Made by a program: the position numbers and the translations under genes. From positions 1 to 60,067 of the IMG/VR virus record IMGVR_UViG_3300021964_000066: a stretch of DNA of 60,067 nucleotides; one strand, 5' to 3'. The number at the start of each line of letters is the position of its first letter. The stretch's first letter is position 1. The notes below the pieces were generated by a model that saw only the letters and a program-made list of their open reading frames with translations, did no database searches and had not been told where the DNA came from. The stretch comes from a virus (taxonomy: Duplodnaviria; Caudoviricetes). Shown here piece after piece: positions 1,730-51,198 of this stretch.

Positions 1730-4700
1730 ATGGCGCAAGAAATCATTGACTTAGGTGAAGGCCCAGATAGCAACACTGGGGATTCACTTTATACAGCGTT
1801 TACAAAAACCAACAGTAACTTTACAGAGTTATACACAATTATTGGTAGCAACAGTACGACAAATTTAACTGGTAATACTATTACTGCAAATTATTTTTAC
1901 ACTACTGGCAATTTAAGAGTTGGTAATGTCAATGGTTTTGGAAATTTAAGCACTATTGGCAATATTATTGGGGCGGGATATTTTTATCCTAACGGTCAAA
2001 GTGTTTTTAGTAACATTCAAGCAGATCTTAGCAACATAGCGCAAAATGTTCTTCCTGTTACCTCGGCCACATACACATTAGGCAACGTTAACAAACAATG
2101 GCAGCAAGCTTACATTTCTTCTAATATAACATTAAATGGTGCTAATATTGCAATTTCTGATGGCGTACTAACAGTAAACGGTGCAGAAGTAAGTGGCAAT
2201 TATAGTAATAGTAATGTAGCATCCTATTTGCCTACTTATTCAGGCAATTTAGATAGTTTGGCTGGTAATGTAATTACTACTGCTAATGTTACTGCTGCTT
2301 ATTTTATTGGTAATGGTAGTCAACTCGAAGGACTGCCTGCTTCTTATTCAAACGCAAACGTAGCCAGTTATTTGCCAACGTATAGTGGTAACCTTGACAG
2401 TGTCGACGGTATAACTGCAAACAGTATTAGTGCAACAGAATTTATTGGCAACATTATCCCAAGCGCCAACGTTACTTACAATTTGGGAAGTTCAGATTTT
2501 AGATTTAAAGATTTATTCTTAAGTGGAAGTACTATTAACTTAGATGGTGCATCAATTAGTGCCAACAATACCGCAGTGATTATTACAACTGCTGAAGGTG
2601 GTACATTTGTTATTCAAGGATCTGAAGATGCAACAACATATAGAATTCAAAATGGCACTTCTAATGTTGACATTCCTGCTAGTGACGGAAATATTTTAAT
2701 TTCAGTTAACGGTGAATCGATAGCAACTTTTTCTTCCTTAGGTTTAGAAGTTGTTGGAAACATTACACCTGGTAATGTAGATACCGCAGGCAATGTTACA
2801 GCCAGTTATTTCTTTGGTAATGGTAGCCAATTAGACGGACTTACAGAATTAAGTGTAAACTTTGCAAACACTGCGGGTACTGCCGAGTTCGTAACCAATG
2901 CTACACAGGCAAACATTACCAGTGTTGGCACATTGACCAGTCTGACATTAAGTGGTACACTAACTGGCACTACAGTAGAAGCAGCACAAATTGGTAATAG
3001 TGGTGCTACATTAACAGGTACACTAGACACTGCAGCACAGACTAATATTACTTCAGTTGGCACACTGACTGGTTTGACACTAAGTGGTGCACTAAACGGT
3101 ACTACTCTACAAGCCGCTACAATTGGAAATGTAGGTGCTTCGATTATAGGTAATGGAAGCGCATTAACAAGTTTAACTGGGGCAAATGTTACAGGGACAG
3201 TAGCAAATGCAACATACGCGGACAGCGCAGATAGTGCTACAACCGCAACAAGTGCCGACACTGCTGAATTTGTAACTAACGCTACACAGAGTAACATTAC
3301 ATCAGTTGGCACACTAACAAGTCTGACATTAAGCGGCACGCTGACTGGTACAACTGTTGAAGCGGCACAAATAGGTAACAGCGGAGCAACACTAACCGGT
3401 ACACTAGATACTGCTGCTCAGACAAACATCACATCTGTCGGTACACTAACTGGGCTAACATTATCAGGAACATTGACAGGTACTACACTTGAAGCAGCAA
3501 CTATTGGTAATGCAGGTGCAAGTATAATTGGCGATGGAAGTCAATTAACCAGTTTAACTGGAGCAAATGTCACAGGTACTGTTGCAAACGCAACATACGC
3601 AGATAGCGCAGGCAGTGCTACAACCGCAACAACGGCAGATACTGCCGAGTTTGTAACTAATGCTGCTCAAGCAAACATTACCAGTGTTGGCACGTTAACT
3701 TCGTTAACATTATCAGGTACACTGACAGGTACAACTGTTGAAGCAGCACAAATAGGTAACTCAGGAGCCACATTAACTGGCACACTAGATACTGCTGCTC
3801 AAACAAATATTACCTCAGTTGGTACATTAACTGGATTAACATTAAGTGGTACATTAACGGGTACAACCATTAATGCTGCCAGCATTGGTAACGCAGGATC
3901 TACACTAACTGGTACGTTACAAACCGCCGCCCAAACAAATATTACCTCAGTAGGCACATTAACTGGATTAACACTGAGTGGTACACTAACAGGTACTACT
4001 GTCGAAGCAGCACAAATAGGTAATAGCGGTGCTACACTAACAGGTACGCTCGATACCGCGGCACAAACTAATATCACATCTGTTGGTACACTAACTGGAT
4101 TGACACTAAGTGGTGCATTAAACGGTACTTCACTTAATGCTGCAACCATTGGAAATAGCGGGTCGTTACTGACAGGCACCCTTACTACAGCAAGTCAACC
4201 AAACGTTACTTCACTAAGTGACAGCGTTACAATCGGTGAAATCACAATTGGTAGCAATGCTATTACTAGCACACATCATACTATTACATTAGAACCGGCT
4301 GATGCAGGTAGTACAGGTAATGTTGTTATTGAAGGTAATTTAAGAGTTACAGGAAATGTAACTTACATTGACAGTGAAACAATCACTACCAATGACAAAG
4401 ACATAATGATTGCTAACAATACCAGCAACATTGCAGATTTGAATGGTGCTGGTATACTTGTTGGTAATATTAGTGGTGCAGGAATTGTTACTTGGACATA
4501 CAGCACAACACAAGATGCTTGGATTAGTAATGTTGGAATTGCACCAGCAGCTAATGCTACGTTGGATTTTGGTGGTACAAGTAATTATTGGAACAATGCA
4601 TACGCAGCAAATGTTATTTCTGAGAGCCTAACAGGTACATTACAAACTGCTGCTCAAACTAACATCACATCTGTTGGTACACTAACTGGACTTACACTAA

Positions 4701-7700
4701 GTGGTAACTTGGATGGCACAAACATAAATGCAGCCAGTATTGGTAACACTGGCGCAACCATTACAGGTACACTACAAACTGCTGCTCAGACCAATATTAC
4801 AAGTTTAGGGACATTAACTGGTTTAACATTAAGTGGTACACTAACTGGTACCACAGTCGAAGCTTCTACCATTGGTAACACAGGTGCAACACTAACTGGC
4901 ACATTGAGTACCGCAGCACAAACAAACATTACATCAGTTGGTACACTGACTGGTTTAACACTAAGTGGTACACTAACAGGTACAACTGTTGAAGCAGCAC
5001 AAATAGGTAACTCAGGAGCAACACTAACTGGTACATTAGACACCGCTGCTCAAACAAACATAACAAGCGTAGGTACACTAACTGGTTTAACATTAAGTGG
5101 TACACTAAACGGAACAACTATACAAGCCGCCATAATCGGTAACTCAGGTGCCAGCATTATTGGAGATGGCAGTCAGTTAACCAGTTTGACGGGTGCAAAC
5201 GTAACTGGCACTGTAGCTAATGCTACATATGCAGATAATGCAGGCAGTGCTACGACAGCGGTAAGTGCTGACACTGCTGAGTTTGTAACTAACGCCACAC
5301 AGGCAAATATTACCAGCGTAGGCACATTAACCGGCTTAACTTTAAGTGGTAACTTAGATGGCACTAACATCAATGCGGCCAGCATTGGTAACTCAGGTGC
5401 AAGTATTACAGGTACAATACAAACAGCAGCACAAACAAATATTACTTCGGTTGGAACACTAACTGGACTTACACTGTCAGGAACACTAACTGGCACAACA
5501 GTAGAAGCAGCACAAATTGGTAATAGTGGTGCAACCCTAACTGGTACATTAGATACTGCTGCACAAACTAATATTACAAGTGTTGGTACATTAACCGGAC
5601 TAACTTTATCGGGTACACTAACCGGCACAACTGTTAACGCTGCTCAAATCGGAAATATTGATGCTGCAATAACAGCTGCAACAGTAAGTGCTGCCACAAT
5701 TGGTAATACAGGAACTACACTCACAGGTACATTAAGCACTGCGGCTCAGACAAACATTACATCAGTTGGTACTTTGGTAAGTTTAGGAGTTACTGGCAAC
5801 GTAGACGCTGGAAATCTTATTACAACTGGAACGGTAGAAGCAACTGGCAATATTTCTACTGACAACTACTTGTTAGGAAATGGTAGGTTTATTCAAGGAA
5901 TTACCGTCGCAGCTGGTAGTGCAATTGAAAATGGTACCAGTAATGTAGTTGTTGCTGCAAGTGGTAACATTACTGCTGCCGTTGCTGGCGTGACAGATGT
6001 TGTAACAATTGCTACCGACGGTGTATACACCGGCAATGTGTTTGTTGACAACACCATTACTGCAGCAACAGTAAATGCAGCTCAGATTGGTAATAGCGGT
6101 GCTACCTTAACAGGAACACTTGACACTGCTGCACAGACTAATATCACCTCAGTAGGTACATTAACTGGCTTAACTTTATCAGGTGCATTAAATGGTACTA
6201 CACTACAGGCAGCAACTATTGGTAATTCTGGCGCATCATTTATTGGTAATGGTAGCCAATTAACAAGCCTAACCGGTGCAAATGTTACAGGTACTGTAGC
6301 AAATTCTACATATGCAGATAATGCAGGTAGTGCTACAACAGCAATAACAGCAGATACCGCTGAGTTTGTAACTAACTCCACACAGAGCAACATTACTGCA
6401 GTTGGTACATTAACCAGCTTAACTCTGTCAGGTACATTAACAGGTACAACTATAGAAGCAGCACAGATTGGTAACAGCGGTGCTACACTGACAGGTACGC
6501 TGGATACCGCTGCCCAAACTAACATTACATCTGTTGGTACACTAACCGGTTTAACTCTTTCAGGAACTCTAAACGGAACAACCGTACAAGCAGCCACAAT
6601 TGGTAATGCTGGTGCAACTTTAATTGGTAGTACATTAGATACTACTGCAAACGCCACAGTAAATGGATTAACAGTTAATACCAGTACTACTATTTCTACA
6701 ACTTTAGATGTAACTGGTAACATTACAGGTGGAAACTTATCGGGAACTTTAATAGCAGGCACTTTGAGCACTGCTGCACAACCTAACATCACTTCACTTG
6801 GAATATTAACCGGACTTACACTGTCAGGCACGTTAACTGGTACTACTATAAACGCTGCCACAATTGGTAATACAGATGCTGCTATTGTTGGTGCTACAGT
6901 AAGTGCTGCAACTATTGGTAACACTGGTGCTGCTATCGTAGGTGCAACCGTTAGTGCAGCCACAATTGGTAACGCTGCTGCCGCGCTCGTCGGTGCAACT
7001 GTTAATACCAGTGCTAATGCAACAGTAAATGGATTAACAGTAAACAATAGTGCCACAATTGGTACTACATTAGGTGTTGCTGGTGTTACAACTATTACAG
7101 ATACTACGGATAGCACTGACACAGTAACAGGTGCACTGGTAGTATCGGGTGGCGTTGGCATTGCCAAACAACTGCGTGTAGGCAATAACGCTGTAATTAG
7201 CGGTAGTGCAACTATTGTAGGGGATTTGAACGTTAGTGGTAACGTAAACTATAGCGGTTCCAATAACTTGGTTATTAGCGACAACGTAATCGAATTACAC
7301 GTTGCCAACGTAGCCAACGTTGCTGAACCCTGGACATTTGATGATGGTAAAGACATTGGTCTGCGTTTCCACTACTATGAAGGTGCAGATAAGAGTGCTG
7401 CGTTTGTTTTCAGTCACGATGAACGTAATTTTGAATTTTACGATGATGGTGCACTGGGTGCAAACGTATTTACAGGCAACAGTTATGGCGGTTTAAAAGC
7501 AGGACAAGCTGTATTTGTTAACACTACACCGACAACAGGAAATGCAACTGGTGCACTGCAAGTTTATGGCGGCGCAAGTGTCAGCGGTAACCTATATGTG
7601 GTTGGCCAGTTTACTGTAGAAAATACTGTAACTTTTTCTAATACAATTTCAGGTACTACATTTGAAGCAGCACAAATTGGTAATACAGGTACAATATTAA

Positions 7701-10700
7701 CTGGAACAATAAGCACTGCTAGCCAGCCTAATATTACTAGCTTAGGAACACTAACTGGACTTACATTATCAGGTACACTAACAGGTACTACTCTTGAAGC
7801 AGCACAGATTGGAAATGCAGGAGCAACTATCACTGGTGCTACAGTTGAAGCTGCTACAATTGGTAATTCAGGTACAACACTGACAGGTACACTAAGCACT
7901 GCAAGTCAACCTAATGTTACTTCACTGGGTACACTGACAGGACTTACATTGTCAGGTACATTGACAGGAACAACTGTCGAAGCCAGTCAAATAGGTAATG
8001 TTGGTACTACCTTTACAGGTGCCAGTGTAAGTGCAGCCACAATTGGTAACTCAGGTGCAACCTTAACAGGAACTTTAAGTACTGCTAGTCAGCCAAATGT
8101 AACAAGTCTCGGAACACTAACCGGATTAACCCTAAGTGGCACACTAACAGGAACTACGTTAGAAGCAGCGCAGATTGGTAATAGCGGTGCTACATTAACA
8201 GGTACACTAGACACCGCAGCACAAACAAACATAACATCGGTTGGCACACTAACCGGATTGACATTAAGCGGTACACTAACAGGTACAACTGTTGAAGCAG
8301 CACAAATAGGTAACTCAGGAGCAACACTAACTGGTACACTTGACACTGCTGCTCAAACTAATATTACAAGTCTTGGTACACTGACTGGGCTAACACTAAG
8401 TGGCACATTAACGGGTACTACAGTTGAAGCCGCACAGATTGGTAATTCAGGAGCCACGTTAACTGGTACGCTTGACACTGCTTCACAAACAAATATTACT
8501 TCAGTAGGCACATTAACTGGGCTAACACTGAGTGGTACACTAACAGGCACAACGGTAGAAGCAGCACAGATTGGTAACAGCGGAGCAACTTTAACAGGTA
8601 CTTTAGATACTGCAGCTCAACCAAACATAACCAGTGTTGGAACTCTTGACAGTTTGACTGTTACAGGTAATGTTGCTGGCGGCAACTTAACAACTGCAGG
8701 AGACGTAACAACCGTTACAGTAACAGCATCGGGTAACATATCAGGTGCTAACCTTACTACTGCAGGCATAGTTGATGCAACTGGAAATGTTAGTTCTGGC
8801 AACTACTTACTTGGAAATGGTAGATTTATTCAAGGTATCACTGTTGAAGCAGGATCCTCTATTGCAAGTGGAACAAGCAACGTTGTTGTTGCCGAAGATG
8901 GCAATGTAACATTTGGAATCGGTGGAACCAACGATGTTGCTACTGTTACAACTACAGGAATTGAAACAGGAACATTATCACTTACTGGTACACTAACAGG
9001 CACAACAGTAGAAGCAGCACAGATAGGTAATAGTGGAGCAACTTTAACAGGCACGTTAGATACTGCAGCTCAGACAAATATCACATCAGTCGGTACATTA
9101 ACTGGACTAACACTAAGTGGTACACTAACAGGTACAACTGTAAATGCGGCTACTATTGGTAACTCAGGCGCTACAATTATTGGTAATGGAAGTCAGTTAA
9201 CCAGTTTAACAGGAGCAAACGTTACAGGTACAGTAGCCAATGCAACTTATGCTGATAGTGCAGGTAGCGCAGGAACTGCAACAAGCGCAGACACTGCTGA
9301 ATTTGTAACTAACGCTACACAGAGTAACATTACATCAGTTGGCACATTAACCAGTTTAACCGTTACAGGTAATGTCAGTGCAGGTAATGTTAGTGCTACT
9401 GGACTAGCAGGTACATTAAGTACTGCTGCACAAACTAATATTACTTCACTAGGCACATTAACTGGGTTGACACTTAGCGGCACATTGACAGGTACCACAA
9501 TAAACGCAGCCGCAATCGGCAATTCGGGTGCAACTCTAACTGGTACACTGCAGACAGCAGCACAAACAAATATAACTAGTGTTGGTACACTAACTGGATT
9601 AACACTTAGCGGCACATTGACAGGTACCACAATAAACGCAGCCGCAATCGGCAATTCGGGTGCAACTCTAACTGGTACACTGCAGACAGCAGCACAAACA
9701 AATATTACTTCGCTGGGTACACTCACTGGATTGACTCTGTCAGGCACGTTAAATGGAACTACGGTACAAGCAGCGACTATCGGAAATGCAGGCGCTGCGT
9801 TTATTGGTAATGGAAGTCAGTTAACCAGCTTAACAGGTGCAAACGTAACAGGCACAGTGGCTAATGCCACTTATGCTGATAGTGCAGGTAGTGCAGCCAG
9901 TGCTACTTCTGCTGACTCGGCAACTCTTGCTGAATATGTAACACAATCTGCACAAGCAAACATTACTAGTGTAGGTTCCAGTCTTACTACAGCCGAAATT
10001 ACAATTGGTAGTAATGCAATTACAAGTACTCACCATACAATTACTATTGAGCCTGCAGATGCTGGAAGTACAGGCAACGTGGTAATTGAAGGTAATCTGC
10101 GTGTTACTGGTAATGTAACTTATATAGACAGCGAAACAATTACAACCAATGACAAAGACATCATGGTTGCTAACAACCAAACTACAAGTTTGGGTATTGA
10201 TGGCGCTGGTATAATTGCAGGTAATGTCAGCAACGTAGGCATTGCTACATTCACTTACGACCACAGTACAACTAGTTGGCAACCCAACGTAGGAATCACA
10301 CCTGCTGCAAATGCTTCATTAGACCTTGGTGGTACCAGCAACTACTGGAATAATGGATATTTTGCTGCTATTACTGCACCGAGCATTACTGGTACACTAC
10401 AGACTGCTGCTCAAACTAATATTACCTCAGTAGGCACATTAACTGGATTGACCTTAAGTGGTACACTAACTGGTACAACCATAAATGCTGCTGCAATTGG
10501 TAACTCGGGTGCAACACTTACAGGTACGATACAGACTGCTGCTCAAACTAATATTACCTCAGTAGGCACATTAACTGGATTAACACTGAGTGGTACACTA
10601 ACTGGTACAACTATAAATGCTGCTGCAATTGGTAACTCAGGTGCAACACTTACAGGTACAATACAAACAGCAGCACAAACAAATATTACCTCAGTTGGAA

Positions 10701-11482
10701 CATTAACTGGATTGACACTAAGTGGTACACTAACAGGTACAACTGTTGAAGCAGCACAAATAGGAAACTCAGGAGCCACATTAACCGGTACACTAGATAC
10801 TGCCGCCCAAACAAATATTACCTCAGTTGGAACATTAACTGGACTAACATTGAGCGGTGCCCTACTTGGAACTACAGTAGGTACAAGCGGTAACGCCACA
10901 GTCAACGGGTTAACAGTAAATACCAGTGCCACAGTAGGCACAACATTGGGAGTTACAGGTAACGCCACAGTAGGCGGCATACTGACAGACAACTACTACT
11001 ATGCAAACGGTAGTCCATTTAGTCCTGGCGGCGGCGGCGGAACCACAACAGTTAGCAATACTGCACCAAGTTCACCAAGTCAAGGCGATATTTGGATTGA
11101 TAGTGACAGTGCTATACAGTACATTTACTTCAGTGACGGGGATAGCAGCCAGTGGGCTGAAATGCAAGCAGAATTATCATTCGGACAGAGCAGTTACTGG
11201 TTAGAAAAGACAGGCAACTACACAGCAGTTAGTGGCGATTGGTTAATTGTAAATACAGCAAGCAGCGCAATTACAATTACTTTACCTGCTAGTCCATCAT
11301 TGGGTGATACAGTCAAGATTGTAGACGGCTCTGGTAATGCTGCAACAAATAATATCACTGTTGACAGAAACACTAATAATATAAACGGCACTGCTGCAAA
11401 TCTAACTATTGACATCGATAGAGCATCTGTTGAAGTTGTTTACTATGATACAACCAATGGATGGATTCTAATAGGAACATAA
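1730..11482 (+). CDS. Giant repeat-built tail fibre/adhesin-like virion protein (3250 aa)
   Basis: N-terminal IDLG..PD..TGDSLYTAF.K.N.NF.ELY motif typical of T4-like baseplate/fibre proteins. Dozens of 44-aa T/G/A/S/N repeats. C-terminal AP.SP..GDIWIDS and ITLPASPSLGDTV modules. Confidence 0.8.
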   Translation: MAQEIIDLGEGPDSNTGDSLYTAFTKTNSNFTELYTIIGSNSTTNLTGNTITANYFYTTGNLRVGNVNGFGNLSTIGNIIGAGYFYPNGQSVFSNIQADLSNIAQNVLPVTSATYTLGNVNKQWQQAYISSNITLNGANIAISDGVLTVNGAEVSGNYSNSNVASYLPTYSGNLDSLAGNVITTANVTAAYFIGNGSQLEGLPASYSNANVASYLPTYSGNLDSVDGITANSISATEFIGNIIPSANVTYNLGSSDFRFKDLFLSGSTINLDGASISANNTAVIITTAEGGTFVIQGSEDATTYRIQNGTSNVDIPASDGNILISVNGESIATFSSLGLEVVGNITPGNVDTAGNVTASYFFGNGSQLDGLTELSVNFANTAGTAEFVTNATQANITSVGTLTSLTLSGTLTGTTVEAAQIGNSGATLTGTLDTAAQTNITSVGTLTGLTLSGALNGTTLQAATIGNVGASIIGNGSALTSLTGANVTGTVANATYADSADSATTATSADTAEFVTNATQSNITSVGTLTSLTLSGTLTGTTVEAAQIGNSGATLTGTLDTAAQTNITSVGTLTGLTLSGTLTGTTLEAATIGNAGASIIGDGSQLTSLTGANVTGTVANATYADSAGSATTATTADTAEFVTNAAQANITSVGTLTSLTLSGTLTGTTVEAAQIGNSGATLTGTLDTAAQTNITSVGTLTGLTLSGTLTGTTINAASIGNAGSTLTGTLQTAAQTNITSVGTLTGLTLSGTLTGTTVEAAQIGNSGATLTGTLDTAAQTNITSVGTLTGLTLSGALNGTSLNAATIGNSGSLLTGTLTTASQPNVTSLSDSVTIGEITIGSNAITSTHHTITLEPADAGSTGNVVIEGNLRVTGNVTYIDSETITTNDKDIMIANNTSNIADLNGAGILVGNISGAGIVTWTYSTTQDAWISNVGIAPAANATLDFGGTSNYWNNAYAANVISESLTGTLQTAAQTNITSVGTLTGLTLSGNLDGTNINAASIGNTGATITGTLQTAAQTNITSLGTLTGLTLSGTLTGTTVEASTIGNTGATLTGTLSTAAQTNITSVGTLTGLTLSGTLTGTTVEAAQIGNSGATLTGTLDTAAQTNITSVGTLTGLTLSGTLNGTTIQAAIIGNSGASIIGDGSQLTSLTGANVTGTVANATYADNAGSATTAVSADTAEFVTNATQANITSVGTLTGLTLSGNLDGTNINAASIGNSGASITGTIQTAAQTNITSVGTLTGLTLSGTLTGTTVEAAQIGNSGATLTGTLDTAAQTNITSVGTLTGLTLSGTLTGTTVNAAQIGNIDAAITAATVSAATIGNTGTTLTGTLSTAAQTNITSVGTLVSLGVTGNVDAGNLITTGTVEATGNISTDNYLLGNGRFIQGITVAAGSAIENGTSNVVVAASGNITAAVAGVTDVVTIATDGVYTGNVFVDNTITAATVNAAQIGNSGATLTGTLDTAAQTNITSVGTLTGLTLSGALNGTTLQAATIGNSGASFIGNGSQLTSLTGANVTGTVANSTYADNAGSATTAITADTAEFVTNSTQSNITAVGTLTSLTLSGTLTGTTIEAAQIGNSGATLTGTLDTAAQTNITSVGTLTGLTLSGTLNGTTVQAATIGNAGATLIGSTLDTTANATVNGLTVNTSTTISTTLDVTGNITGGNLSGTLIAGTLSTAAQPNITSLGILTGLTLSGTLTGTTINAATIGNTDAAIVGATVSAATIGNTGAAIVGATVSAATIGNAAAALVGATVNTSANATVNGLTVNNSATIGTTLGVAGVTTITDTTDSTDTVTGALVVSGGVGIAKQLRVGNNAVISGSATIVGDLNVSGNVNYSGSNNLVISDNVIELHVANVANVAEPWTFDDGKDIGLRFHYYEGADKSAAFVFSHDERNFEFYDDGALGANVFTGNSYGGLKAGQAVFVNTTPTTGNATGALQVYGGASVSGNLYVVGQFTVENTVTFSNTISGTTFEAAQIGNTGTILTGTISTASQPNITSLGTLTGLTLSGTLTGTTLEAAQIGNAGATITGATVEAATIGNSGTTLTGTLSTASQPNVTSLGTLTGLTLSGTLTGTTVEASQIGNVGTTFTGASVSAATIGNSGATLTGTLSTASQPNVTSLGTLTGLTLSGTLTGTTLEAAQIGNSGATLTGTLDTAAQTNITSVGTLTGLTLSGTLTGTTVEAAQIGNSGATLTGTLDTAAQTNITSLGTLTGLTLSGTLTGTTVEAAQIGNSGATLTGTLDTASQTNITSVGTLTGLTLSGTLTGTTVEAAQIGNSGATLTGTLDTAAQPNITSVGTLDSLTVTGNVAGGNLTTAGDVTTVTVTASGNISGANLTTAGIVDATGNVSSGNYLLGNGRFIQGITVEAGSSIASGTSNVVVAEDGNVTFGIGGTNDVATVTTTGIETGTLSLTGTLTGTTVEAAQIGNSGATLTGTLDTAAQTNITSVGTLTGLTLSGTLTGTTVNAATIGNSGATIIGNGSQLTSLTGANVTGTVANATYADSAGSAGTATSADTAEFVTNATQSNITSVGTLTSLTVTGNVSAGNVSATGLAGTLSTAAQTNITSLGTLTGLTLSGTLTGTTINAAAIGNSGATLTGTLQTAAQTNITSVGTLTGLTLSGTLTGTTINAAAIGNSGATLTGTLQTAAQTNITSLGTLTGLTLSGTLNGTTVQAATIGNAGAAFIGNGSQLTSLTGANVTGTVANATYADSAGSAASATSADSATLAEYVTQSAQANITSVGSSLTTAEITIGSNAITSTHHTITIEPADAGSTGNVVIEGNLRVTGNVTYIDSETITTNDKDIMVANNQTTSLGIDGAGIIAGNVSNVGIATFTYDHSTTSWQPNVGITPAANASLDLGGTSNYWNNGYFAAITAPSITGTLQTAAQTNITSVGTLTGLTLSGTLTGTTINAAAIGNSGATLTGTIQTAAQTNITSVGTLTGLTLSGTLTGTTINAAAIGNSGATLTGTIQTAAQTNITSVGTLTGLTLSGTLTGTTVEAAQIGNSGATLTGTLDTAAQTNITSVGTLTGLTLSGALLGTTVGTSGNATVNGLTVNTSATVGTTLGVTGNATVGGILTDNYYYANGSPFSPGGGGGTTTVSNTAPSSPSQGDIWIDSDSAIQYIYFSDGDSSQWAEMQAELSFGQSSYWLEKTGNYTAVSGDWLIVNTASSAITITLPASPSLGDTVKIVDGSGNAATNNITVDRNTNNINGTAANLTIDIDRASVEVVYYDTTNGWILIGT
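2860..10860 (+). repeat. Coding 132-bp (44-aa) degenerate repeat, AAQTNITSVGTLTGLTLSGTLTGTTVEAAQIGNSGATLTGTLDT
   Basis: Visible throughout the translation. A nucleotide-identical tandem stretch of about 100 nt starts at 9471 and 9603 (132-nt period). Boundaries approximate. Confidence 0.9.
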
Positions 11483-47080: not shown

Positions 47081-47109
47081 TTGACAAAAAATTCCCGTTA
47101 CTATATAAT
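47081..47109 (+). promoter_or_regulatory. Consensus sigma70 promoter heading the tRNA array
   Basis: TTGACA-N17-TATAAT, 10 nt before the first tRNA. Confidence 0.9.
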
Positions 47110-47118
47110 AACTCTATT

Positions 47119-47194
47119 GCGCCTGTAGCTCAATGGTTAGAGCAGTAGACTCATAATCTATTGGTTGGGGATTCGAGTTCCTCCGGGCGCACCA
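47119..47194 (+). tRNA. tRNA with CAT anticodon (elongator Met or Ile2)
   Basis: Cloverleaf GCGCCTG/CGGGCGC, loop CT-CAT-AA, encoded CCA. Confidence 0.85.
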
Positions 47195-47203
47195 GGTTAG
47201 TAT

Positions 47204-47291
47204 GCCCGGATGGTGAAATAGGTAGACACAACAGACTTAAAATCTGTCGCCCCAAACAGGCGTGCCGGTTCGAGTCCGGCTCCGGGCACCA
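47204..47291 (+). tRNA. tRNA-Leu(TAA)
   Basis: GCCCGGA/TCCGGGC, loop CT-TAA-AA, long variable arm, CCA. Confidence 0.92.
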
Positions 47292-47416
47292 CGAGATTAT
47301 TATGAGTTTAGGTTCATTATACCTTTTGATTCAGTTCTTTAATAAACAAGAAATTTGTTTTTGGGACATTCACCAAGATTGATTTTGGATAAGTACAGTA
47401 CTTCAAGGAGAACTGT

Positions 47417-47563
47417 ATGGCAGCAAAATCGAAATTAGGTGAAAAACCCCAAGTCAAATTAAAAATTGAAAAGCGTACCAGTCAGGGCGGCAAAGTCAAA
47501 CGCTCGAGCATGAACAAAGGTCAGAAGCGTGGTTTTAAAGCATACCGTGGACAGGGACGCTAA
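47417..47563 (+). CDS. 48-aa basic microprotein ending YRGQGR
   Basis: My translation MAAKSKLGEKPQVKLKIEKRTSQGGKVKRSSMNKGQKRGFKAYRGQGR; SD AAGGAG. Confidence 0.75.
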   Translation: MAAKSKLGEKPQVKLKIEKRTSQGGKVKRSSMNKGQKRGFKAYRGQGR

Positions 47564-47572
47564 GTAAAAAGT

Positions 47573-47649
47573 TCCCTGGTAGCTCAGTCGGTAGTAGCAA
47601 CGGACTGTTAATCCGTGTGTCGTTGGTTCGATCCCAACCCAGGGAGCCA
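47573..47649 (+). tRNA. tRNA-Asn(GTT)
   Basis: TCCCTGG/CCAGGGA, loop CT-GTT-AA, GCCA end. Confidence 0.92.
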
Positions 47650-47655
47650 TTTTTG

Positions 47656-47684
47656 TTGACTTATAATAGAAACGCATATATAAT
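47656..47684 (+). promoter_or_regulatory. Sigma70 promoter
   Basis: TTGACT-N17-TATAAT. Confidence 0.8.
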
Positions 47685-47693
47685 AATACTTTA

Positions 47694-47769
47694 GCCGGTT
47701 TAGCTCATTTGGTAGAGCAACGCACTTGTAATGCGTAGGTGGTCAGTTCGAATCCGACAACCGGCACCA
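47694..47769 (+). tRNA. tRNA-Thr(TGT)
   Basis: GCCGGTT/AACCGGC, loop CT-TGT-AA, CCA. Confidence 0.92.
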
Positions 47770-47866
47770 TATTAAAGCATATCTAGTCGTATGTTGAGCC
47801 TAATAGGTCTACAACGGCATACGATGAACTTGCTATGTTGTAGTGGCATGGTGTGCTTTAATATGG
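47770..47866 (+). ncRNA. Candidate three-way-junction RNA with possible pseudoknot
   Basis: Closing stem TATTAAAGCATATC/GGTGTGCTTTAATA, two inner stems and a complementary CTACAAC/GTTGTAG pair. Confidence 0.5.
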
Positions 47867-47871
47867 TAAAT

Positions 47872-47956
47872 GCCCCTTTGGCGTAATTGATAGACGCACT
47901 GGATTTAGGTTCCAGCGCCGCGAGGCGTGAGAGTTCGATTCCGGCAGACGGCACCA
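47872..47956 (+). pseudogene. Chimeric/defective tRNA-Leu(TAG)
   Basis: 5' part resembles tRNA-Leu at 48861, but the 3' end (CCGGCAGACGGCACCA) cannot properly form the T stem or acceptor stem. Confidence 0.75.
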
Positions 47957-48010
47957 AAATTTTTTTACCGATTAAATAAATATTTTAATATTTTTATCAA
48001 AGGTAAAATT

Positions 48011-48826
48011 TTGTCATTTCGAGTACATAAAAACGTTGTAACAGATGAGTTTGTTCAAGATACACTGTTATTATTTGATAAAAACATAGGCGCAAGGCAT
48101 CCACTTCCTGAGGAAATACAATCTCCTTATTTCGGACTTGTTGATTTATCTGTTTTACCCAATAAGTATAAAGAACAACTTTTTTCAATTCTAGACAAGA
48201 TTTTAGATGAACCGTATGAACTTGAAAAAATTTACTTGTACGATAAAGAAAAGCACAATTTCTCATTGCATGTTGATACAGGAGAGGATGAAATTCCTCA
48301 AAGACTTTATAAAAATGTCTTAATTCCTATAAAAGGAATCGGAGCTTCTACTGTTATTTTTGAAAACAAATGGTATCATAAAAGAGCACTTTTTAAAAAA
48401 AATAGTGCGAAAAATGAGAAAATTACTGTATCTCTAAACAAAATTTCAGGAGAAAATATTATAGATGATGTTAGAAAATTAACACCATTACCGCCACATT
48501 GTCAACAGCCCTACTGGAAATATGGTTTGACAAAGGAACAAGTTTATGAACTTTTGGCATTCGCCGACATACAAGAGCAAAGATGGATCGTAGGAGATTA
48601 CTCAGAAATAGAAGGTTATGATCCTCGCTTAGAAATTAATAATGAAATTTATGAAAAATACCTTAGTTCAATGACAAAAGATGATTTTAATGGTCTTACC
48701 GTCGATTCCATTTATGATTGGAATATAGGTGATGTGGCAACTTGGGATAGAAATCAATTGCACTGTGGTGCTGGCGATAATGTCAATAAGAAAAGTCTTA
48801 TAATTTTTACAAAAAAATTAAGTTGA
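48011..48826 (+). CDS. 2OG-Fe(II) oxygenase/cupin-like protein
   Basis: LHVDTG...LIP and W..GD...WDR.QLHC; TTG start re-called after AAAGGT; AT-rich. Confidence 0.55.
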   Translation: MSFRVHKNVVTDEFVQDTLLLFDKNIGARHPLPEEIQSPYFGLVDLSVLPNKYKEQLFSILDKILDEPYELEKIYLYDKEKHNFSLHVDTGEDEIPQRLYKNVLIPIKGIGASTVIFENKWYHKRALFKKNSAKNEKITVSLNKISGENIIDDVRKLTPLPPHCQQPYWKYGLTKEQVYELLAFADIQEQRWIVGDYSEIEGYDPRLEINNEIYEKYLSSMTKDDFNGLTVDSIYDWNIGDVATWDRNQLHCGAGDNVNKKSLIIFTKKLS

Positions 48827-48860
48827 CTCGATATTAAAAATTAAATACCTAGTATAAAGT

Positions 48861-48945
48861 GCCCCTTTGGCGTAATTGGTAGCCGCGCTGGATTTAGGTT
48901 CCAGTACCGAGAGGTGTGAGGGTTCGAGTCCCTTGGGGGGCACCA
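48861..48945 (+). tRNA. tRNA-Leu(TAG)
   Basis: GCCCCTT/GGGGGGC, loop TT-TAG-GT, variable arm, CCA. Confidence 0.9.
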
Positions 48946-48955
48946 TAAAGAGTGT

Positions 48956-49029
48956 GCAGGATTCGTATAGTGGTAATACCTCAGCCTTCCAAGCTGATGC
49001 GAGGAGTTCGATTCTCCTATCCTGCTCCA
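48956..49029 (+). tRNA. tRNA-Gly(TCC)
   Basis: GCAGGAT/ATCCTGC, loop CT-TCC-AA, TCCA end. Confidence 0.92.
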
Positions 49030-49032
49030 AGT

Positions 49033-49109
49033 CGGGGTGTAGCGCAGCCTGGTAGCGCAACTGGTTTGGGACCAGTGGGTCGGAGGTTCGAATCCTTTCA
49101 CCCCGACCA
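49033..49109 (+). tRNA. tRNA-Pro(TGG)
   Basis: CGGGGTG/CACCCCG, loop TT-TGG-GA, CCA. Confidence 0.92.
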
Positions 49110-49120
49110 TTATAAATATT

Positions 49121-49196
49121 GGATCGTTAGCTCAGATGGTAGAGCGTCGCGTTTACACCGCGAATGTCGGCAGTTCGATCCTGTCACGATCCACCA
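49121..49196 (+). tRNA. tRNA-Val(TAC)
   Basis: GGATCGT/ACGATCC, loop TT-TAC-AC, CCA. Confidence 0.92.
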
Positions 49197-49200
49197 AATT

Positions 49201-49276
49201 GGGGGTATAGCTCAGTTGGGAGAGCGCTTGATTTGCATTCAAGAGGTCATCGGTTCGATCCCGGTTACCTCCACCA
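49201..49276 (+). tRNA. tRNA-Ala(TGC)
   Basis: GGGGGTA/TACCTCC with G3:U70, loop TT-TGC-AT, CCA. Confidence 0.92.
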
Positions 49277-49291
49277 ATTAAAGGAACAGAT

Positions 49292-49588
49292 ATGAAAAGT
49301 CTAATTGCTATTCTAAGTTTAACACTAAGTGGTACAGCACTAGCCGATCAGGCACTAGCACAGAAAAATATGTGTTTGGCCTGCCACGCTGTTGACACCA
49401 AGTTGGTAGGACCCTCTTACAAGGATGTTGCCGCAAAATATCGAGACCAAAAAGACAGTGTTTCATATCTTGTCAACAAAATCAAAAACGGCGGCTCGGG
49501 TGTTTGGGGTGTGATTCCCATGCCGGCACAGCCACAGCTCAGTGACAAAGACGCTGAAACTTTAGCTAAGTGGATTTTGCAAAAGTAA
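49292..49588 (+). CDS. Class I cytochrome c (c551/c552-like) with signal peptide
   Basis: Sec signal ending ALA-D, CLACH heme motif, K.VGP.Y..VA.KY and G.WG..PMP with axial Met. Confidence 0.92.
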   Translation: MKSLIAILSLTLSGTALADQALAQKNMCLACHAVDTKLVGPSYKDVAAKYRDQKDSVSYLVNKIKNGGSGVWGVIPMPAQPQLSDKDAETLAKWILQK

Positions 49589-49603
49589 TACTTAAGTGTT
49601 ACA

Positions 49604-49632
49604 TTGACAATAATTCCGATTTCACATACAAT
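49604..49632 (+). promoter_or_regulatory. Sigma70 promoter
   Basis: TTGACA-N17-TACAAT. Confidence 0.8.
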
Positions 49633-49646
49633 ACATTTAAGTTGAC

Positions 49647-49701
49647 GCACATTAGAGATAAGACGGTACTGGTTCGAAACGGGACTCCTCGTCTAATGTG
49701 C
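49647..49701 (+). ncRNA. Candidate small structured RNA/leader
   Basis: 10-bp stem GCACATTAGA/TCTAATGTGC enclosing 35 nt that include GGTTCGAAAC. Confidence 0.4.
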
Positions 49702-49706
49702 TTCTT

Positions 49707-49781
49707 GCACGGTTCGTCTATCGGTTAGGACACTGGCCTTTCACGCCGGTAAGAGGGGTTCGATTCCCCTACCGTGTACCA
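49707..49781 (+). tRNA. tRNA-Glu(TTC)
   Basis: GCACGGT/ACCGTGT, loop CT-TTC-AC, CCA. Confidence 0.9.
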
Positions 49782-49786
49782 AACAT

Positions 49787-49864
49787 AGTACGGTGGCAGA
49801 GTGGCCCAATGCACGGGACTGCAAATCCCGAAAATCGTCGGTTCAAATCCGACCCGTACTTCCA
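49787..49864 (+). tRNA. tRNA-Cys(GCA)
   Basis: AGTACGG/CCGTACT, loop CT-GCA-AA, U73-CCA. Confidence 0.9.
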
Positions 49865-50056
49865 GAACGTTCCGTGTAGCAACGGATACTCCGACCCGGA
49901 GGATGAGAAGTGGTGTAGCAACCACGGGTGGTTCCAGTCCAACCAAACTGGCGCTGGCAATGCGACAACGGTCCCTGTCGGGAAGCGGGTGGAAGGTATC
50001 TGTGAAGCGATGCATAGTGGAGATACTATAATTACCGCCGGGGGACGCAGAGCACT
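49865..50056 (+). ncRNA. Candidate ~190-nt multi-stem non-coding RNA between tRNA-Cys and tRNA-Tyr
   Basis: GC-rich with no credible ORF; at least seven complementary stems identified by eye. Confidence 0.65.
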
Positions 50057-50058
50057 TT

Positions 50059-50143
50059 GGACAGGTGGGTGAGTGGTTAAAACCAGCAGACTGTAAATCT
50101 GCCGCCCCTGGCTACGTTAGTTCGAATCTAACCCTGTCCACCA
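50059..50143 (+). tRNA. tRNA-Tyr(GTA)
   Basis: GGACAGG/CCTGTCC, loop CT-GTA-AA, variable arm, CCA. Confidence 0.92.
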
Positions 50144-50148
50144 TATTT

Positions 50149-50223
50149 GGTCTGTTAGTTAAACGGTTATAATAATGGCCTGTCACGCCGTAGTCAGGGG
50201 TTCGACTCCCCTACAGACCGCCA
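50149..50223 (+). tRNA. tRNA-Asp(GTC)
   Basis: GGTCTGT/ACAGACC, loop CT-GTC-AC, GCCA end. Confidence 0.92.
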
Positions 50224-50274
50224 AATAAATTTAGATCATTATAAAAAAATAATTAATGTATCTAAGGATCGAAT

Positions 50275-50988
50275 GTGAAAAAATTTAAAGATACACTTAC
50301 CATTAAATTACGGGATTTACACAAGCCTGCAATGCGATCGTTTACCAGTCTGGCTGTTGTATTCTACATGAATCAATATTTTAAATTTAAAAATTTATTG
50401 GAAATAGGATTTTATCAAGGCCTAACATTTGGCTGCTTATTAGAATCTGCCCAAGATGGAGCGATACTGACCGCTATCGACACCAGATTTCGAATGGAGA
50501 TTTATGATAAATTTTATAAAGACAGTGAATACACAAAAAATAAACAGATTAATCTACTAGAAATATCTGACAGAGAGTTTGAACCAATCGGCGTATATGA
50601 TTTTGTTAATGTAGATTCTGGTCCAGATAGAAAAACACCATTAATGAAAATTCTTAATCATGTAAATGAGCAGAGTATAATTATGTTTGATAATTATGAT
50701 TTTATACAGTTTAAACATCAACTTGATGAGTTTATATCTAAATCCAAATTACACAATTTTGTACCTTTTCTATTAGATGGCGGCGCAATGTATTTCCATC
50801 ATAAAAATAGTGATCATGCGGACTTTCTTGATAATTTTTTAGAAAATATTTTTTGGAAATGGTGTTCTACTGATAACATTGATTATTTAGGACATAGAGT
50901 GAAACAAATACTTCCCAAAGATCTAAAAGACTCATTGAACGAGATGCCAGAGGTATTTAGAGAATTGTTAAATCATATGGATTTTTAA
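50275..50988 (+). CDS. Class I SAM-dependent methyltransferase-like protein
   Basis: LLEIGFYQG.T motif I, YDFVNVDSG and IIMFDN; start uncertain. Confidence 0.7.
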   Translation: MKKFKDTLTIKLRDLHKPAMRSFTSLAVVFYMNQYFKFKNLLEIGFYQGLTFGCLLESAQDGAILTAIDTRFRMEIYDKFYKDSEYTKNKQINLLEISDREFEPIGVYDFVNVDSGPDRKTPLMKILNHVNEQSIIMFDNYDFIQFKHQLDEFISKSKLHNFVPFLLDGGAMYFHHKNSDHADFLDNFLENIFWKWCSTDNIDYLGHRVKQILPKDLKDSLNEMPEVFRELLNHMDF

Positions 50989-50993
50989 AATAC

Positions 50994-51022
50994 TAGACAG
51001 TACATAAACAATCATATATAAT
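50994..51022 (+). promoter_or_regulatory. Sigma70 promoter
   Basis: TAGACA-N17-TATAAT, 10 nt before tRNA-Ser. Confidence 0.75.
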
Positions 51023-51031
51023 TACTATATA

Positions 51032-51118
51032 GGAAGGTTGGCAGAGTGGTAATGCACCGGATTGCTAATCCGCCGTCCAGAAATGGGCGCACAGGTTCGA
51101 GTCCTGTACCTTCCGCCA
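51032..51118 (+). tRNA. tRNA-Ser(GCT)
   Basis: GGAAGGT/ACCTTCC, loop TT-GCT-AA, long variable arm, GCCA end. Confidence 0.9.
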
Positions 51119-51122
51119 TATT

Positions 51123-51198
51123 GCGGGTATGGTGCTAACGGTTAACACACGACCTTGCCAAGGTTGAGTTGAGGGTTCGATTCCCTCTACCCGCTCCA
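51123..51198 (+). tRNA. tRNA-Gly(GCC)
   Basis: GCGGGTA/TACCCGC, loop TT-GCC-AA, TCCA end. Confidence 0.9.

Follow-up and report, generated by a model that had tools for sequence, protein, structure and literature searches.

What occupies a gap of 194 nucleotides (nt) in a phage array of transfer RNA (tRNA) genes whose ordinary spacers measure 3-11 nt? The question is raised by IMG/VR virus record IMGVR_UViG_3300021964_000066, a stretch of 60,067 bases that was analysed at its full length and is called the window here. The window encodes a T4-type large terminase and carries a 15-gene tRNA array at 47119-51198, as called by ARAGORN; its CheckV completeness estimate is 14%, which makes it a fragment of a very large phage. 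Within the array, tRNA-Cys (GCA), with an encoded CCA, lies at 49787-49864 (61.7 bits with the Rfam tRNA model) and tRNA-Tyr (GUA) at 50059-50143 (61.8 bits), both called by ARAGORN on the plus strand; the RNA with its parts and the promoter-like site described below lie on the plus strand too. The stretch 49865-50058 is exactly the gap between them. We found that it is a complete gene for a structured non-coding RNA of about 193 nt, and that this RNA belongs to a large uncatalogued family of uncultured large aquatic phages, in which it is found mostly inside tRNA arrays.

An RNA gene between tRNA-Cys and tRNA-Tyr

The original prediction for this locus had described a spacer that abuts tRNAs on both sides and holds no credible open reading frame (ORF), and both statements proved correct. 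The coordinates all check, the RNA lies flush with a tRNA at either end, and no ORF is confined to the spacer; the sole long frame, 49698-50072, also crosses tRNA-Glu and tRNA-Cys. Neither ARAGORN nor the Rfam tRNA model called a tRNA in 49865-50058. For contrast, a decayed tRNA-Leu copy at 47872-47953 still scores 25.5 bits with the latter model. No Rfam 15 family was found in 49865-50058 when the whole window was searched at the gathering score, and none at E <= 10 when the tRNA array and the isolated stretch were searched. Two relatives were also compared with Rfam; L135 gave one chance-level microRNA match (E 4.6) and L013 gave none.

The RNA family in uncultured phages

We aligned 28 sequences with MAFFT, without fitting them to any structure (alignment A2), and used this alignment as the basis of a covariance model, R1, of 205 positions; a second alignment, A3, holds 58 distinct rows aligned by R1. 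Strong matches to R1 numbered 47 in 100 loci and 18 in 25 further sources, giving at least 65 in 125 sources with the window included, always with one strong match per locus. The window itself matches at 49863-50058 with 211.2 bits (E 2.4e-69), covering model positions 1-205 of 205, and has no other match; as it is among the 28 seed sequences, this score is partly circular. Members outside the seed score 100-229 bits. The original prediction had suggested a discrete RNA of a possibly undescribed class, and this suggestion is borne out by the homologs, by the strong covariation reported below, and by the absence of the class from Rfam and from the papers searched.

The size of the family became apparent only with the choice of search pattern. 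Exact-pattern scans of IMG/VR and Joint Genome Institute (JGI) metagenomes, seeded with the GUAGCA loop of two of its hairpins, H1 and H3, yielded ten distinct sequences, the window included. Real members made up 8 of the 25 loci in the first such scan and 9 of the 10 loci in the metagenome scan, where L092 was false; a second scan, with 65 loci, added only L036 and L066, and two further scans added none. The remaining loci of the GUAGCA scans were rejected as coding repeats or chance matches. These scans underestimated the family because they reached just the window's small subfamily. A pattern on the most conserved 3' half, the motif of hairpin H5 together with AGCGG, returned at least 118 loci, about half of which are clear homologs with H1 and H3 loops other than GUAGCA; among the 115 new loci, at least 55 are members.

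Outside these uncultured phages the RNA was not encountered. In a blastn comparison with 50,697 cultured phage genomes only the flanking tRNAs matched, and the RNA alone gave just four spurious matches (E >= 2). In bacteria and archaea, represented by one genome for each of 185,579 species, two exact patterns gave 0 matches each, a kind of search that can miss diverged copies. Literature searches found no paper on the family; they did not cover the motif lists in supplements of RNA-discovery papers. The absence from Rfam, from cultured phages and from the bacterial and archaeal species points to a sizeable gap in the coverage of RNA catalogues. Large tRNA arrays are an investment made by giant phages, and in these arrays at least 65 contigs hold, in addition, a single copy of a knotted RNA of about 200 nt.

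A few loci hold more than the main copy. Weak second matches to R1 were seen a few hundred bases upstream of it in L236 (1557-1678; 23.0 bits, E 9e-6) and L234 (1407-1556; 14.8 bits, E 0.005), and these could be decayed or distantly related modules.

Covariation and the fold of the RNA

The fold is a knotted 5' domain followed by a 3' domain that the long-range helices P6 and P7 close around a variable arm, P8. In A2, the 47 proposed pairs are filled by complementary bases in 96.8% of cells, compared with 81.1% in column shuffles, of which 0 of 500 reach the observed value, and 37-44% when the partners are slid by 1-3 columns. Changes on both sides were found in 32 of the 47 pairs. RNAalifold, run unaided on A2, returned 45 pairs, 28 of them with compensatory changes. 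The larger alignment gave similar figures: over 50 pairs in A3, 94.9% of cells are paired, compared with 77.0% for shuffles and 33-46% when partners are slid, and both-side changes occur in 36 of the 50. Mutual information with average product correction (APC) placed the same helices on top and revealed no extra long-range pair. Even within the ten-sequence GUAGCA subfamily, RNAalifold found 35 pairs, 13 of them compensatory, with changes in five helices. Hairpins H1-H5 and helices P6-P8 are all present in the window, in family order.

The 5' domain begins with H1, whose stem (49871-75 with 49882-86) carries the loop GUAGCA at 49876-81; all five pairs change on both sides and 98.3% of cells are paired. 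In H2 (49889-92 with 49898-901; 98.7% of cells paired), three of four pairs do so, and the loop is GACCC (49893-97). A purine-rich joining strand, GAUGAGAA, follows at 49902-49909 and is nearly invariant in A2 and A3. H3 (49910-14 with 49921-25) again has five of five pairs changing on both sides and a GUAGCA loop, at 49915-20, the predicted partner of the H1 loop. Directly after H3, GGGU at 49926-29 pairs with ACCC of the H2 loop (49894-97) to form pseudoknot A, which covariation supports: in a minority of members GACCC/GGGUG is swapped for GGUCC/GGACC, a double compensatory change (A-U in 53 and G-C in 3 at one pair; C-G in 53, U-A in 2 and U-G in 3 at another). Pseudoknot C joins GGU(U) at 49930-33 to the H4 loop AACC at 49941-44 (G-C in 49, U-A in 2 and U-G in 1; U-A in 47 and U-G in 2). 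The H4 stem (49934-38 with 49947-51) has changes on both sides in all five pairs, with 99.3% of cells paired, and long H4 insertions occur in L128, L141, L153 and L211.

H5 consists of a CGC/GCG stem (49952-54 with 49962-64), invariant in 58 of 58 rows, and a seven-base loop, UGGCAAU, which is constant save that its last base is G in L036, L090 and L096. Such near-constancy suggests a tertiary or binding role for the loop. In the 3' domain, P6 (49971-76 with 50041-46) has both-side changes in six of six pairs and 98.8% pairing, and is continued by P6' (49979-80 with 50039-40; one of two pairs) and by P7, GCGG/CCGC at 49985-88 with 50035-38, which is nearly invariant. The arm P8 (49995-50001 with 50021-27; both-side changes in five of six pairs) is short in the window and 50-90 nt longer in other members, where it holds a conserved element of CUGAR, a hairpin and GAUGG that may resemble a kink-turn. 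The RNA ends with a conserved tail, GCAGAGCA, at 50047-50058, whose conservation is seen in both A2 and A3 and which then turns U-rich up to the first base of tRNA-Tyr, 0 nt beyond the match.

These results bear on eight pairings that the original prediction had listed. Six of them show compensatory changes in relatives: the stems of H1 and H3, ACCC/GGGU, which is pseudoknot A, CCAGU/ACUGG (49934-38 with 49947-51), GUCCCU/GGGGAC (49971-76 with 50041-46) and GUAUCU/AGAUAC (49996-50001 with 50021-26). The other two, CGC/GCG and GGUGG/UUACC, are invariant, and GGUGG/UUACC competes with the equally invariant GCGG/CCGC of P7, which RNAalifold prefers. We also considered a pairing of the 5' ACGU with the 3' AGCA-Y. 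In the ten-sequence subfamily, judged by eye, one position fits (G-C in 3, A-U in 3, G.U in 3 and G-G in 1); the strands are otherwise invariant, and mutual information showed no pairing between them.

The twin GUAGCA loops as a predicted kissing pair

The twin hairpins with identical loops that first drew attention to this locus, UCCGU-GUAGCA-ACGGA at 49871-49886 and GUGGU-GUAGCA-ACCAC at 49910-49925, are present as described, and a 10-mer common to both, GTGTAGCAAC, occurs without mismatch just at 49874 and 49913 in the 60-kb window. Their comparison across the family leads to a correction: the loops do not represent a duplicated binding site but the predicted two partners of a covarying loop-loop contact. 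Runs of at least four complementary bases between the H1 and H3 loops were found in 42 of 58 rows. Counted by distinct loop pairs, of which there are 26 classes, four or more pairs in a row are possible in 20; in the controls this level was reached by 29.5% of trials with shuffled loops and by 112 of 280 non-cognate combinations. The classes include GUCA/UGAC, UGUC/GACA, AUCA/UGAU, UAACG/CGUUA, GCCA/UGGU, UCAU/AUGA and UAAU/AUUA. This pattern identifies the H1 and H3 loops as a putative kissing pair, mutually complementary and co-varying across the family.

GUAGCA stands in both loops in 10 of the 58 rows, including the window. The window's twin loops are, on this comparison, the presumptive kissing positions of the family in a near-palindromic variant form, and this, with the GUAGCA subfamily, is what is new for the window. 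Setting UAGCAA against UAGCAA in an extended register gives U-A, A.A, G-C, C-G, A.A and A-U, that is, four Watson-Crick pairs and two A.A mismatches. L134, with GUAGCA as its H1 loop and GUAGCU(A) as its H3 loop, can form a clean UAGC/GCUA and thus links the window's type to the ordinary kiss. Furthermore, L036, L090, L096 and L098 have a C.A mismatch where H1 would close, which leaves the A free for the extended kiss. In a FastTree phylogeny built with the loops masked (164 columns; branch support values not considered), the GUAGCA members fall in several places.

Contacts between hairpin loops are familiar from the D-loop/T-loop elbow of tRNA and from the palindromic dimerisation loops of retroviral RNAs. 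As in those systems, two hairpin loops would pair here, and the near-palindromic loops of the window's subfamily are like the retroviral ones. The likeness is one of motif and not of family, with four to five pairs in an RNA of about 200 nt that may form within or between molecules.

Position among tRNAs, proposed release and hints of expression

The company of tRNAs is a feature of the family. At least one tRNA on the same strand was found in 52 of the 58 loci. A tRNA abuts the 5' end of the RNA in 26 of the 58 members, with the first two to three model bases being the CCA of that tRNA, and in 17 the next tRNA begins no more than 5 nt from the 3' end. Three RNA libraries contain contigs that align with the window from 49862 or 49864 to 50054 with 0-4 differences and then continue into other tRNA-like sequence. 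As they diverge into other tRNAs, the edges of the module are tRNA edges in relatives too. The homology boundaries thus coincide with tRNA ends, and the original prediction of a discrete RNA that tRNA processing on either side would release is supported.

A sigma-70-like promoter site lies at 49604-49632, TTGACA and TACAAT separated by 17 nt, identified by its match to 11 of 12 consensus positions alone. It precedes tRNA-Glu, tRNA-Cys, the RNA, tRNA-Tyr and tRNA-Asp. Near-consensus sites of this type also stand ahead of other tRNA sub-clusters, at 47081, 47656 and 50994; the region holds 16 in total, close to the shuffle mean of 13.3. From the site at 49604-49632 the RNA would be transcribed together with the four tRNAs, and the tRNA-maturation machinery would then free it from the precursor. 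RNase P has a universal role in tRNA 5'-end cleavage. Its cut at the 5' end of tRNA-Tyr would make the 3' end of the RNA, and the cut that matures the 3' end of tRNA-Cys would make the 5' end. We infer this route from the general tRNA pathway, and the tRNAs that lie flush with the 5' end in relatives fit release by tRNA-processing enzymes. Expression of the RNA is weakly suggested by the RNA-library contigs. The very high depth at 50064-50103 stems from conserved tRNA-Tyr sequence of other organisms.

In L008 and its copies, which are close relatives of the window, about 690 extra bases separate the RNA from tRNA-Tyr, an insert that the window lacks. It occupies 4445-5135 on the minus strand of L008 and contains two small ORFs and tRNA-like fragments, including the T-arm-like GGUUCGAAUCC.

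Comparison with known RNAs

The closest parallel in position comes from phage T4. Its record lists two small stable RNAs, rnaC (species 1, 139 nt) and rnaD (species 2, 119 nt), beside tRNA-Arg in the tRNA cluster, a setting like that of the window RNA. We take them to be matured from a tRNA precursor. They pose the same long-standing puzzle as the RNA described here, namely the role of stable non-tRNA RNAs in phage tRNA operons. They have been called 'RNAs of yet unknown functions' and were detected by Northern blot (PMC9697503). The window RNA differs from them in being longer, in having three pseudoknots that find support across its relatives and in belonging to a family that is absent from cultured phages. 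When T4 68000-76000 was searched with R1 with filters off, the best score was 4.9 bits (E 0.39), with no real match on rnaC or rnaD, and blastn of the window RNA against cultured phages gave no T4 match. A short palindromic motif at the start of the RNA recurs in a T4 RNAC probe sequence printed in PMC9697503; homology was rejected, the best R1 score on T4 being 4.9 bits.

The original prediction had also drawn a comparison with GOLLD, which stood as far as position in a tRNA array is concerned and failed beyond that, the RNA being about 200 nt long and unrelated to GOLLD. GOLLD and ROOL are described as phage and prophage RNAs of unassigned function that often lie near tRNA islands, have complex pseudoknotted structures and assemble into RNA-only cages (PMC12286853). 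No match to GOLLD, ROOL, manA or any other Rfam 15 covariance model was found in 49865-50058, and many GOLLD members exceed 800 nt, compared with about 193 nt here. A quaternary structure that forms cages has been demonstrated for GOLLD and ROOL.

Possible roles of the RNA

Taken as a whole, the explanation that we favour, an RNA gene of an uncatalogued phage family with the fold and the release set out above and a presumed role in trans, is in our judgement probable. The role is its most tentative part. The released RNA may be a stable, folded, trans-acting RNA with a binding surface, perhaps a decoy or a scaffold, a proposal to which we give rather less than even weight. The surface would be made of the invariant unpaired bases GAUGAGAA, UGGCAAU, GGGUGGAAGG and UAUAAUUACC, and its target, a protein or an RNA, might belong to the translation or tRNA machinery of the cell under infection. 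Unpaired bases that do not vary are a trait of RNAs that do biochemical work. The core is rigid and knotted, the unpaired strands are constant, the periphery tolerates expansions and each locus has one copy; this architecture points to a job of its own rather than to a spacer, and we regard a trans-acting role as more likely than a purely cis-acting one. With its small, well-defined fold and three covariation-supported pseudoknots, the RNA is a practical target for structure determination, oligomerisation tests and pull-downs.

Several observations count against this explanation, or against parts of it. The single-sequence minimum free energy is -64.4 kcal/mol (z = -0.54), and 57 of 200 shuffles fold equally well or better; the evidence for the RNA comes from its relatives and not from thermodynamics. 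A3 was fitted to the nested structure of the model and so leans towards it. H5 and P7 do not vary, so their pairing rests on no compensatory changes, and the support for pseudoknot C is thin, at two to three sequences. The kissing pair is weaker in the window's subfamily than in typical members, its loops giving just two contiguous Watson-Crick pairs; the extended kiss requires two A.A mismatches and the opening of the closing U-A pairs, and the loops of L177 have no complementarity at all. Covariation, moreover, cannot separate pairing in cis from pairing in trans. Around the RNA, the abutting upstream tRNA varies (Tyr in 10 members, Cys in 5 and eight other types in 11), so the adjacency is not specific to one tRNA, and no conserved protein neighbour was noticed, although no systematic neighbour analysis was made. 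The RNA-library contigs are assemblies with a depth of 2-8 over the RNA, in which DNA carry-over is possible and from which neither the ends of the RNA nor its expression level can be read, and a fourth run, X15, has no cover over the RNA. Finally, the observations on the family do not bear on what the RNA does.

Among the alternatives, the one that survives best is a cis-acting module for processing or stability, which would space the flanking tRNAs of the precursor and present them to RNase P and the 3' enzymes, or block exonucleases, the excised RNA itself having no role. The position of the RNA agrees with this, since it is flush between tRNAs in the window and often so in relatives (on the 5' side in 26 of 58 members, on the 3' side in 17 of 58), and varied flanking tRNAs are expected of a generic module. 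Compact folds with several pseudoknots are also known to stall exonucleases, as in exonuclease-resistant RNAs (xrRNAs). However, 32 of the 58 members have no abutting 5' tRNA, and for several the nearest tRNA is hundreds of bases away; invariant unpaired nucleotides in 58 diverged members and a conserved architecture of roughly 200 nt exceed what a spacer needs, and ordinary spacers in the same array manage with 3-11 nt. We consider such a module unlikely.

Scarcely more doubtful is self-assembly, in which the H1 and H3 loops would pair between molecules; the resulting dimers or closed oligomers would be small counterparts of the ROOL and GOLLD cages. The covariation of the loops fits trans pairing as well as cis pairing, and the window's subfamily, having the same near-palindrome in both loops, could make H1-H1, H3-H3 and H1-H3 contacts. 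ROOL and GOLLD offer a precedent, being described as phage RNAs, often near tRNA islands, that form homo-oligomeric nanocages (PMC12286853). Against this, the RNA is 3-4 times smaller than either, the loops are non-palindromic in most members, and H2 and pseudoknot A bridge the bases of H1 and H3, which by reasoning, not computation, makes an intramolecular kiss geometrically plausible. If the loops did pair in trans, the RNA might form dimers, closed rings or cages without protein, in which tRNAs or translation factors would be kept or protected while infection proceeds, with extra types of contact in the GUAGCA subfamily; by analogy this is conceivable, but improbable. If true, the principle of nanocages made of RNA alone, as in ROOL and GOLLD, would also apply to a phage RNA that is much smaller and far more widespread.

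That the conserved core is a ribozyme, catalysing for example self-cleavage at a border or a reaction on tRNA, seems to us distinctly unlikely. Like large ribozymes, the RNA combines several pseudoknots with joining strands that do not vary and a peripheral arm that does, and it adjoins RNA processing sites. But no self-cleaving ribozyme family of Rfam was found, even at E <= 10, the borders are already accounted for by tRNA processing, and the border bases hold no conserved motif except ACGU and AGAGCA. There is less still to recommend a riboswitch or attenuator for the downstream tRNA or tRNAs. The conserved internal loops of the RNA are pocket-like, as in aptamers, and many members have a U-rich 3' tail; yet there is no terminator-like site at the 3' end of the RNA, no expression platform with alternative pairing was seen, what lies downstream varies (tRNA-Ala, Tyr, Ile, Cys, Met or Asn, ORFs, or nothing near), and the element stops exactly at the first base of the next tRNA. 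The reading that there is no functional RNA here, but a spacer rich in hairpins by chance, remnants of tRNA genes or a gene for a small protein, can draw on a folding energy no better than that of shuffles and on a 194-nt spacer about two tRNAs long, but is refuted by the covariation on A2 and A3, with at least 65 strong model matches, compensatory changes in 36 of 50 pairs, nothing called inside 49865-50058 by ARAGORN or the Rfam tRNA model and no ORF confined to the spacer, and we give it practically no weight.

Other features of the arrays and of the window

Between the promoter-like site and tRNA-Glu, a long hairpin is possible in the leader at 49640-49706, where GCACAUUAGA... could pair with ...UCUAAUGUGC and enclose a T-loop-like GGUUCGAAAC; its minimum free energy is -19.1 kcal/mol (z = -1.69), which alone is not significant. 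Just upstream, at 49292-49588 inside the tRNA array, we found a cytochrome c-like ORF of 98 amino acids (Pfam Cytochrom_C, E 4.8e-9), an unusual auxiliary gene for a phage.

Another wide gap of the region, 281 nt between tRNA-Leu(UAA) and tRNA-Asn at 47292-47572, shows 98% identity with the relative L008. It folds better than all 200 of its shuffles (z = -3.61) and contains a very basic ORF of 48 amino acids at 47417-47563, with an AAGGAG ribosome-binding site ahead of it. Further on, a decayed copy of tRNA-Leu(UAG) at 47868-47959 retains 82-86% identity to the real gene at 48861-48945 and 25.5 bits with the Rfam tRNA model, with its T-stem and acceptor broken. This copy overlaps the start of a 299-amino-acid ORF (47927-48826) that has no Pfam or PHROG match and has the intact tRNA-Leu downstream. 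Together, the decayed copy and the ORF look like the outcome of an insertion in which a duplicate of the target was brought along or left behind.

Two relatives carry further genes of note. In the tRNA array of L019, which has a GUAGCA-type RNA, ARAGORN called a permuted transfer-messenger RNA (tmRNA) at 8974-9379 on the minus strand, with the tag ANDEVYALAA. In L019 and in L013, there from about 540, an ORF beginning MARITSEKAVE...GNRYDLVLIASRRARELS lies downstream of the RNA; its product may be the omega subunit of RNA polymerase. In the window, far from the array, a single plus-strand ORF of 3,250 amino acids extends over 1730-11482, and several short near-repeats of one motif lie inside it on the minus strand.

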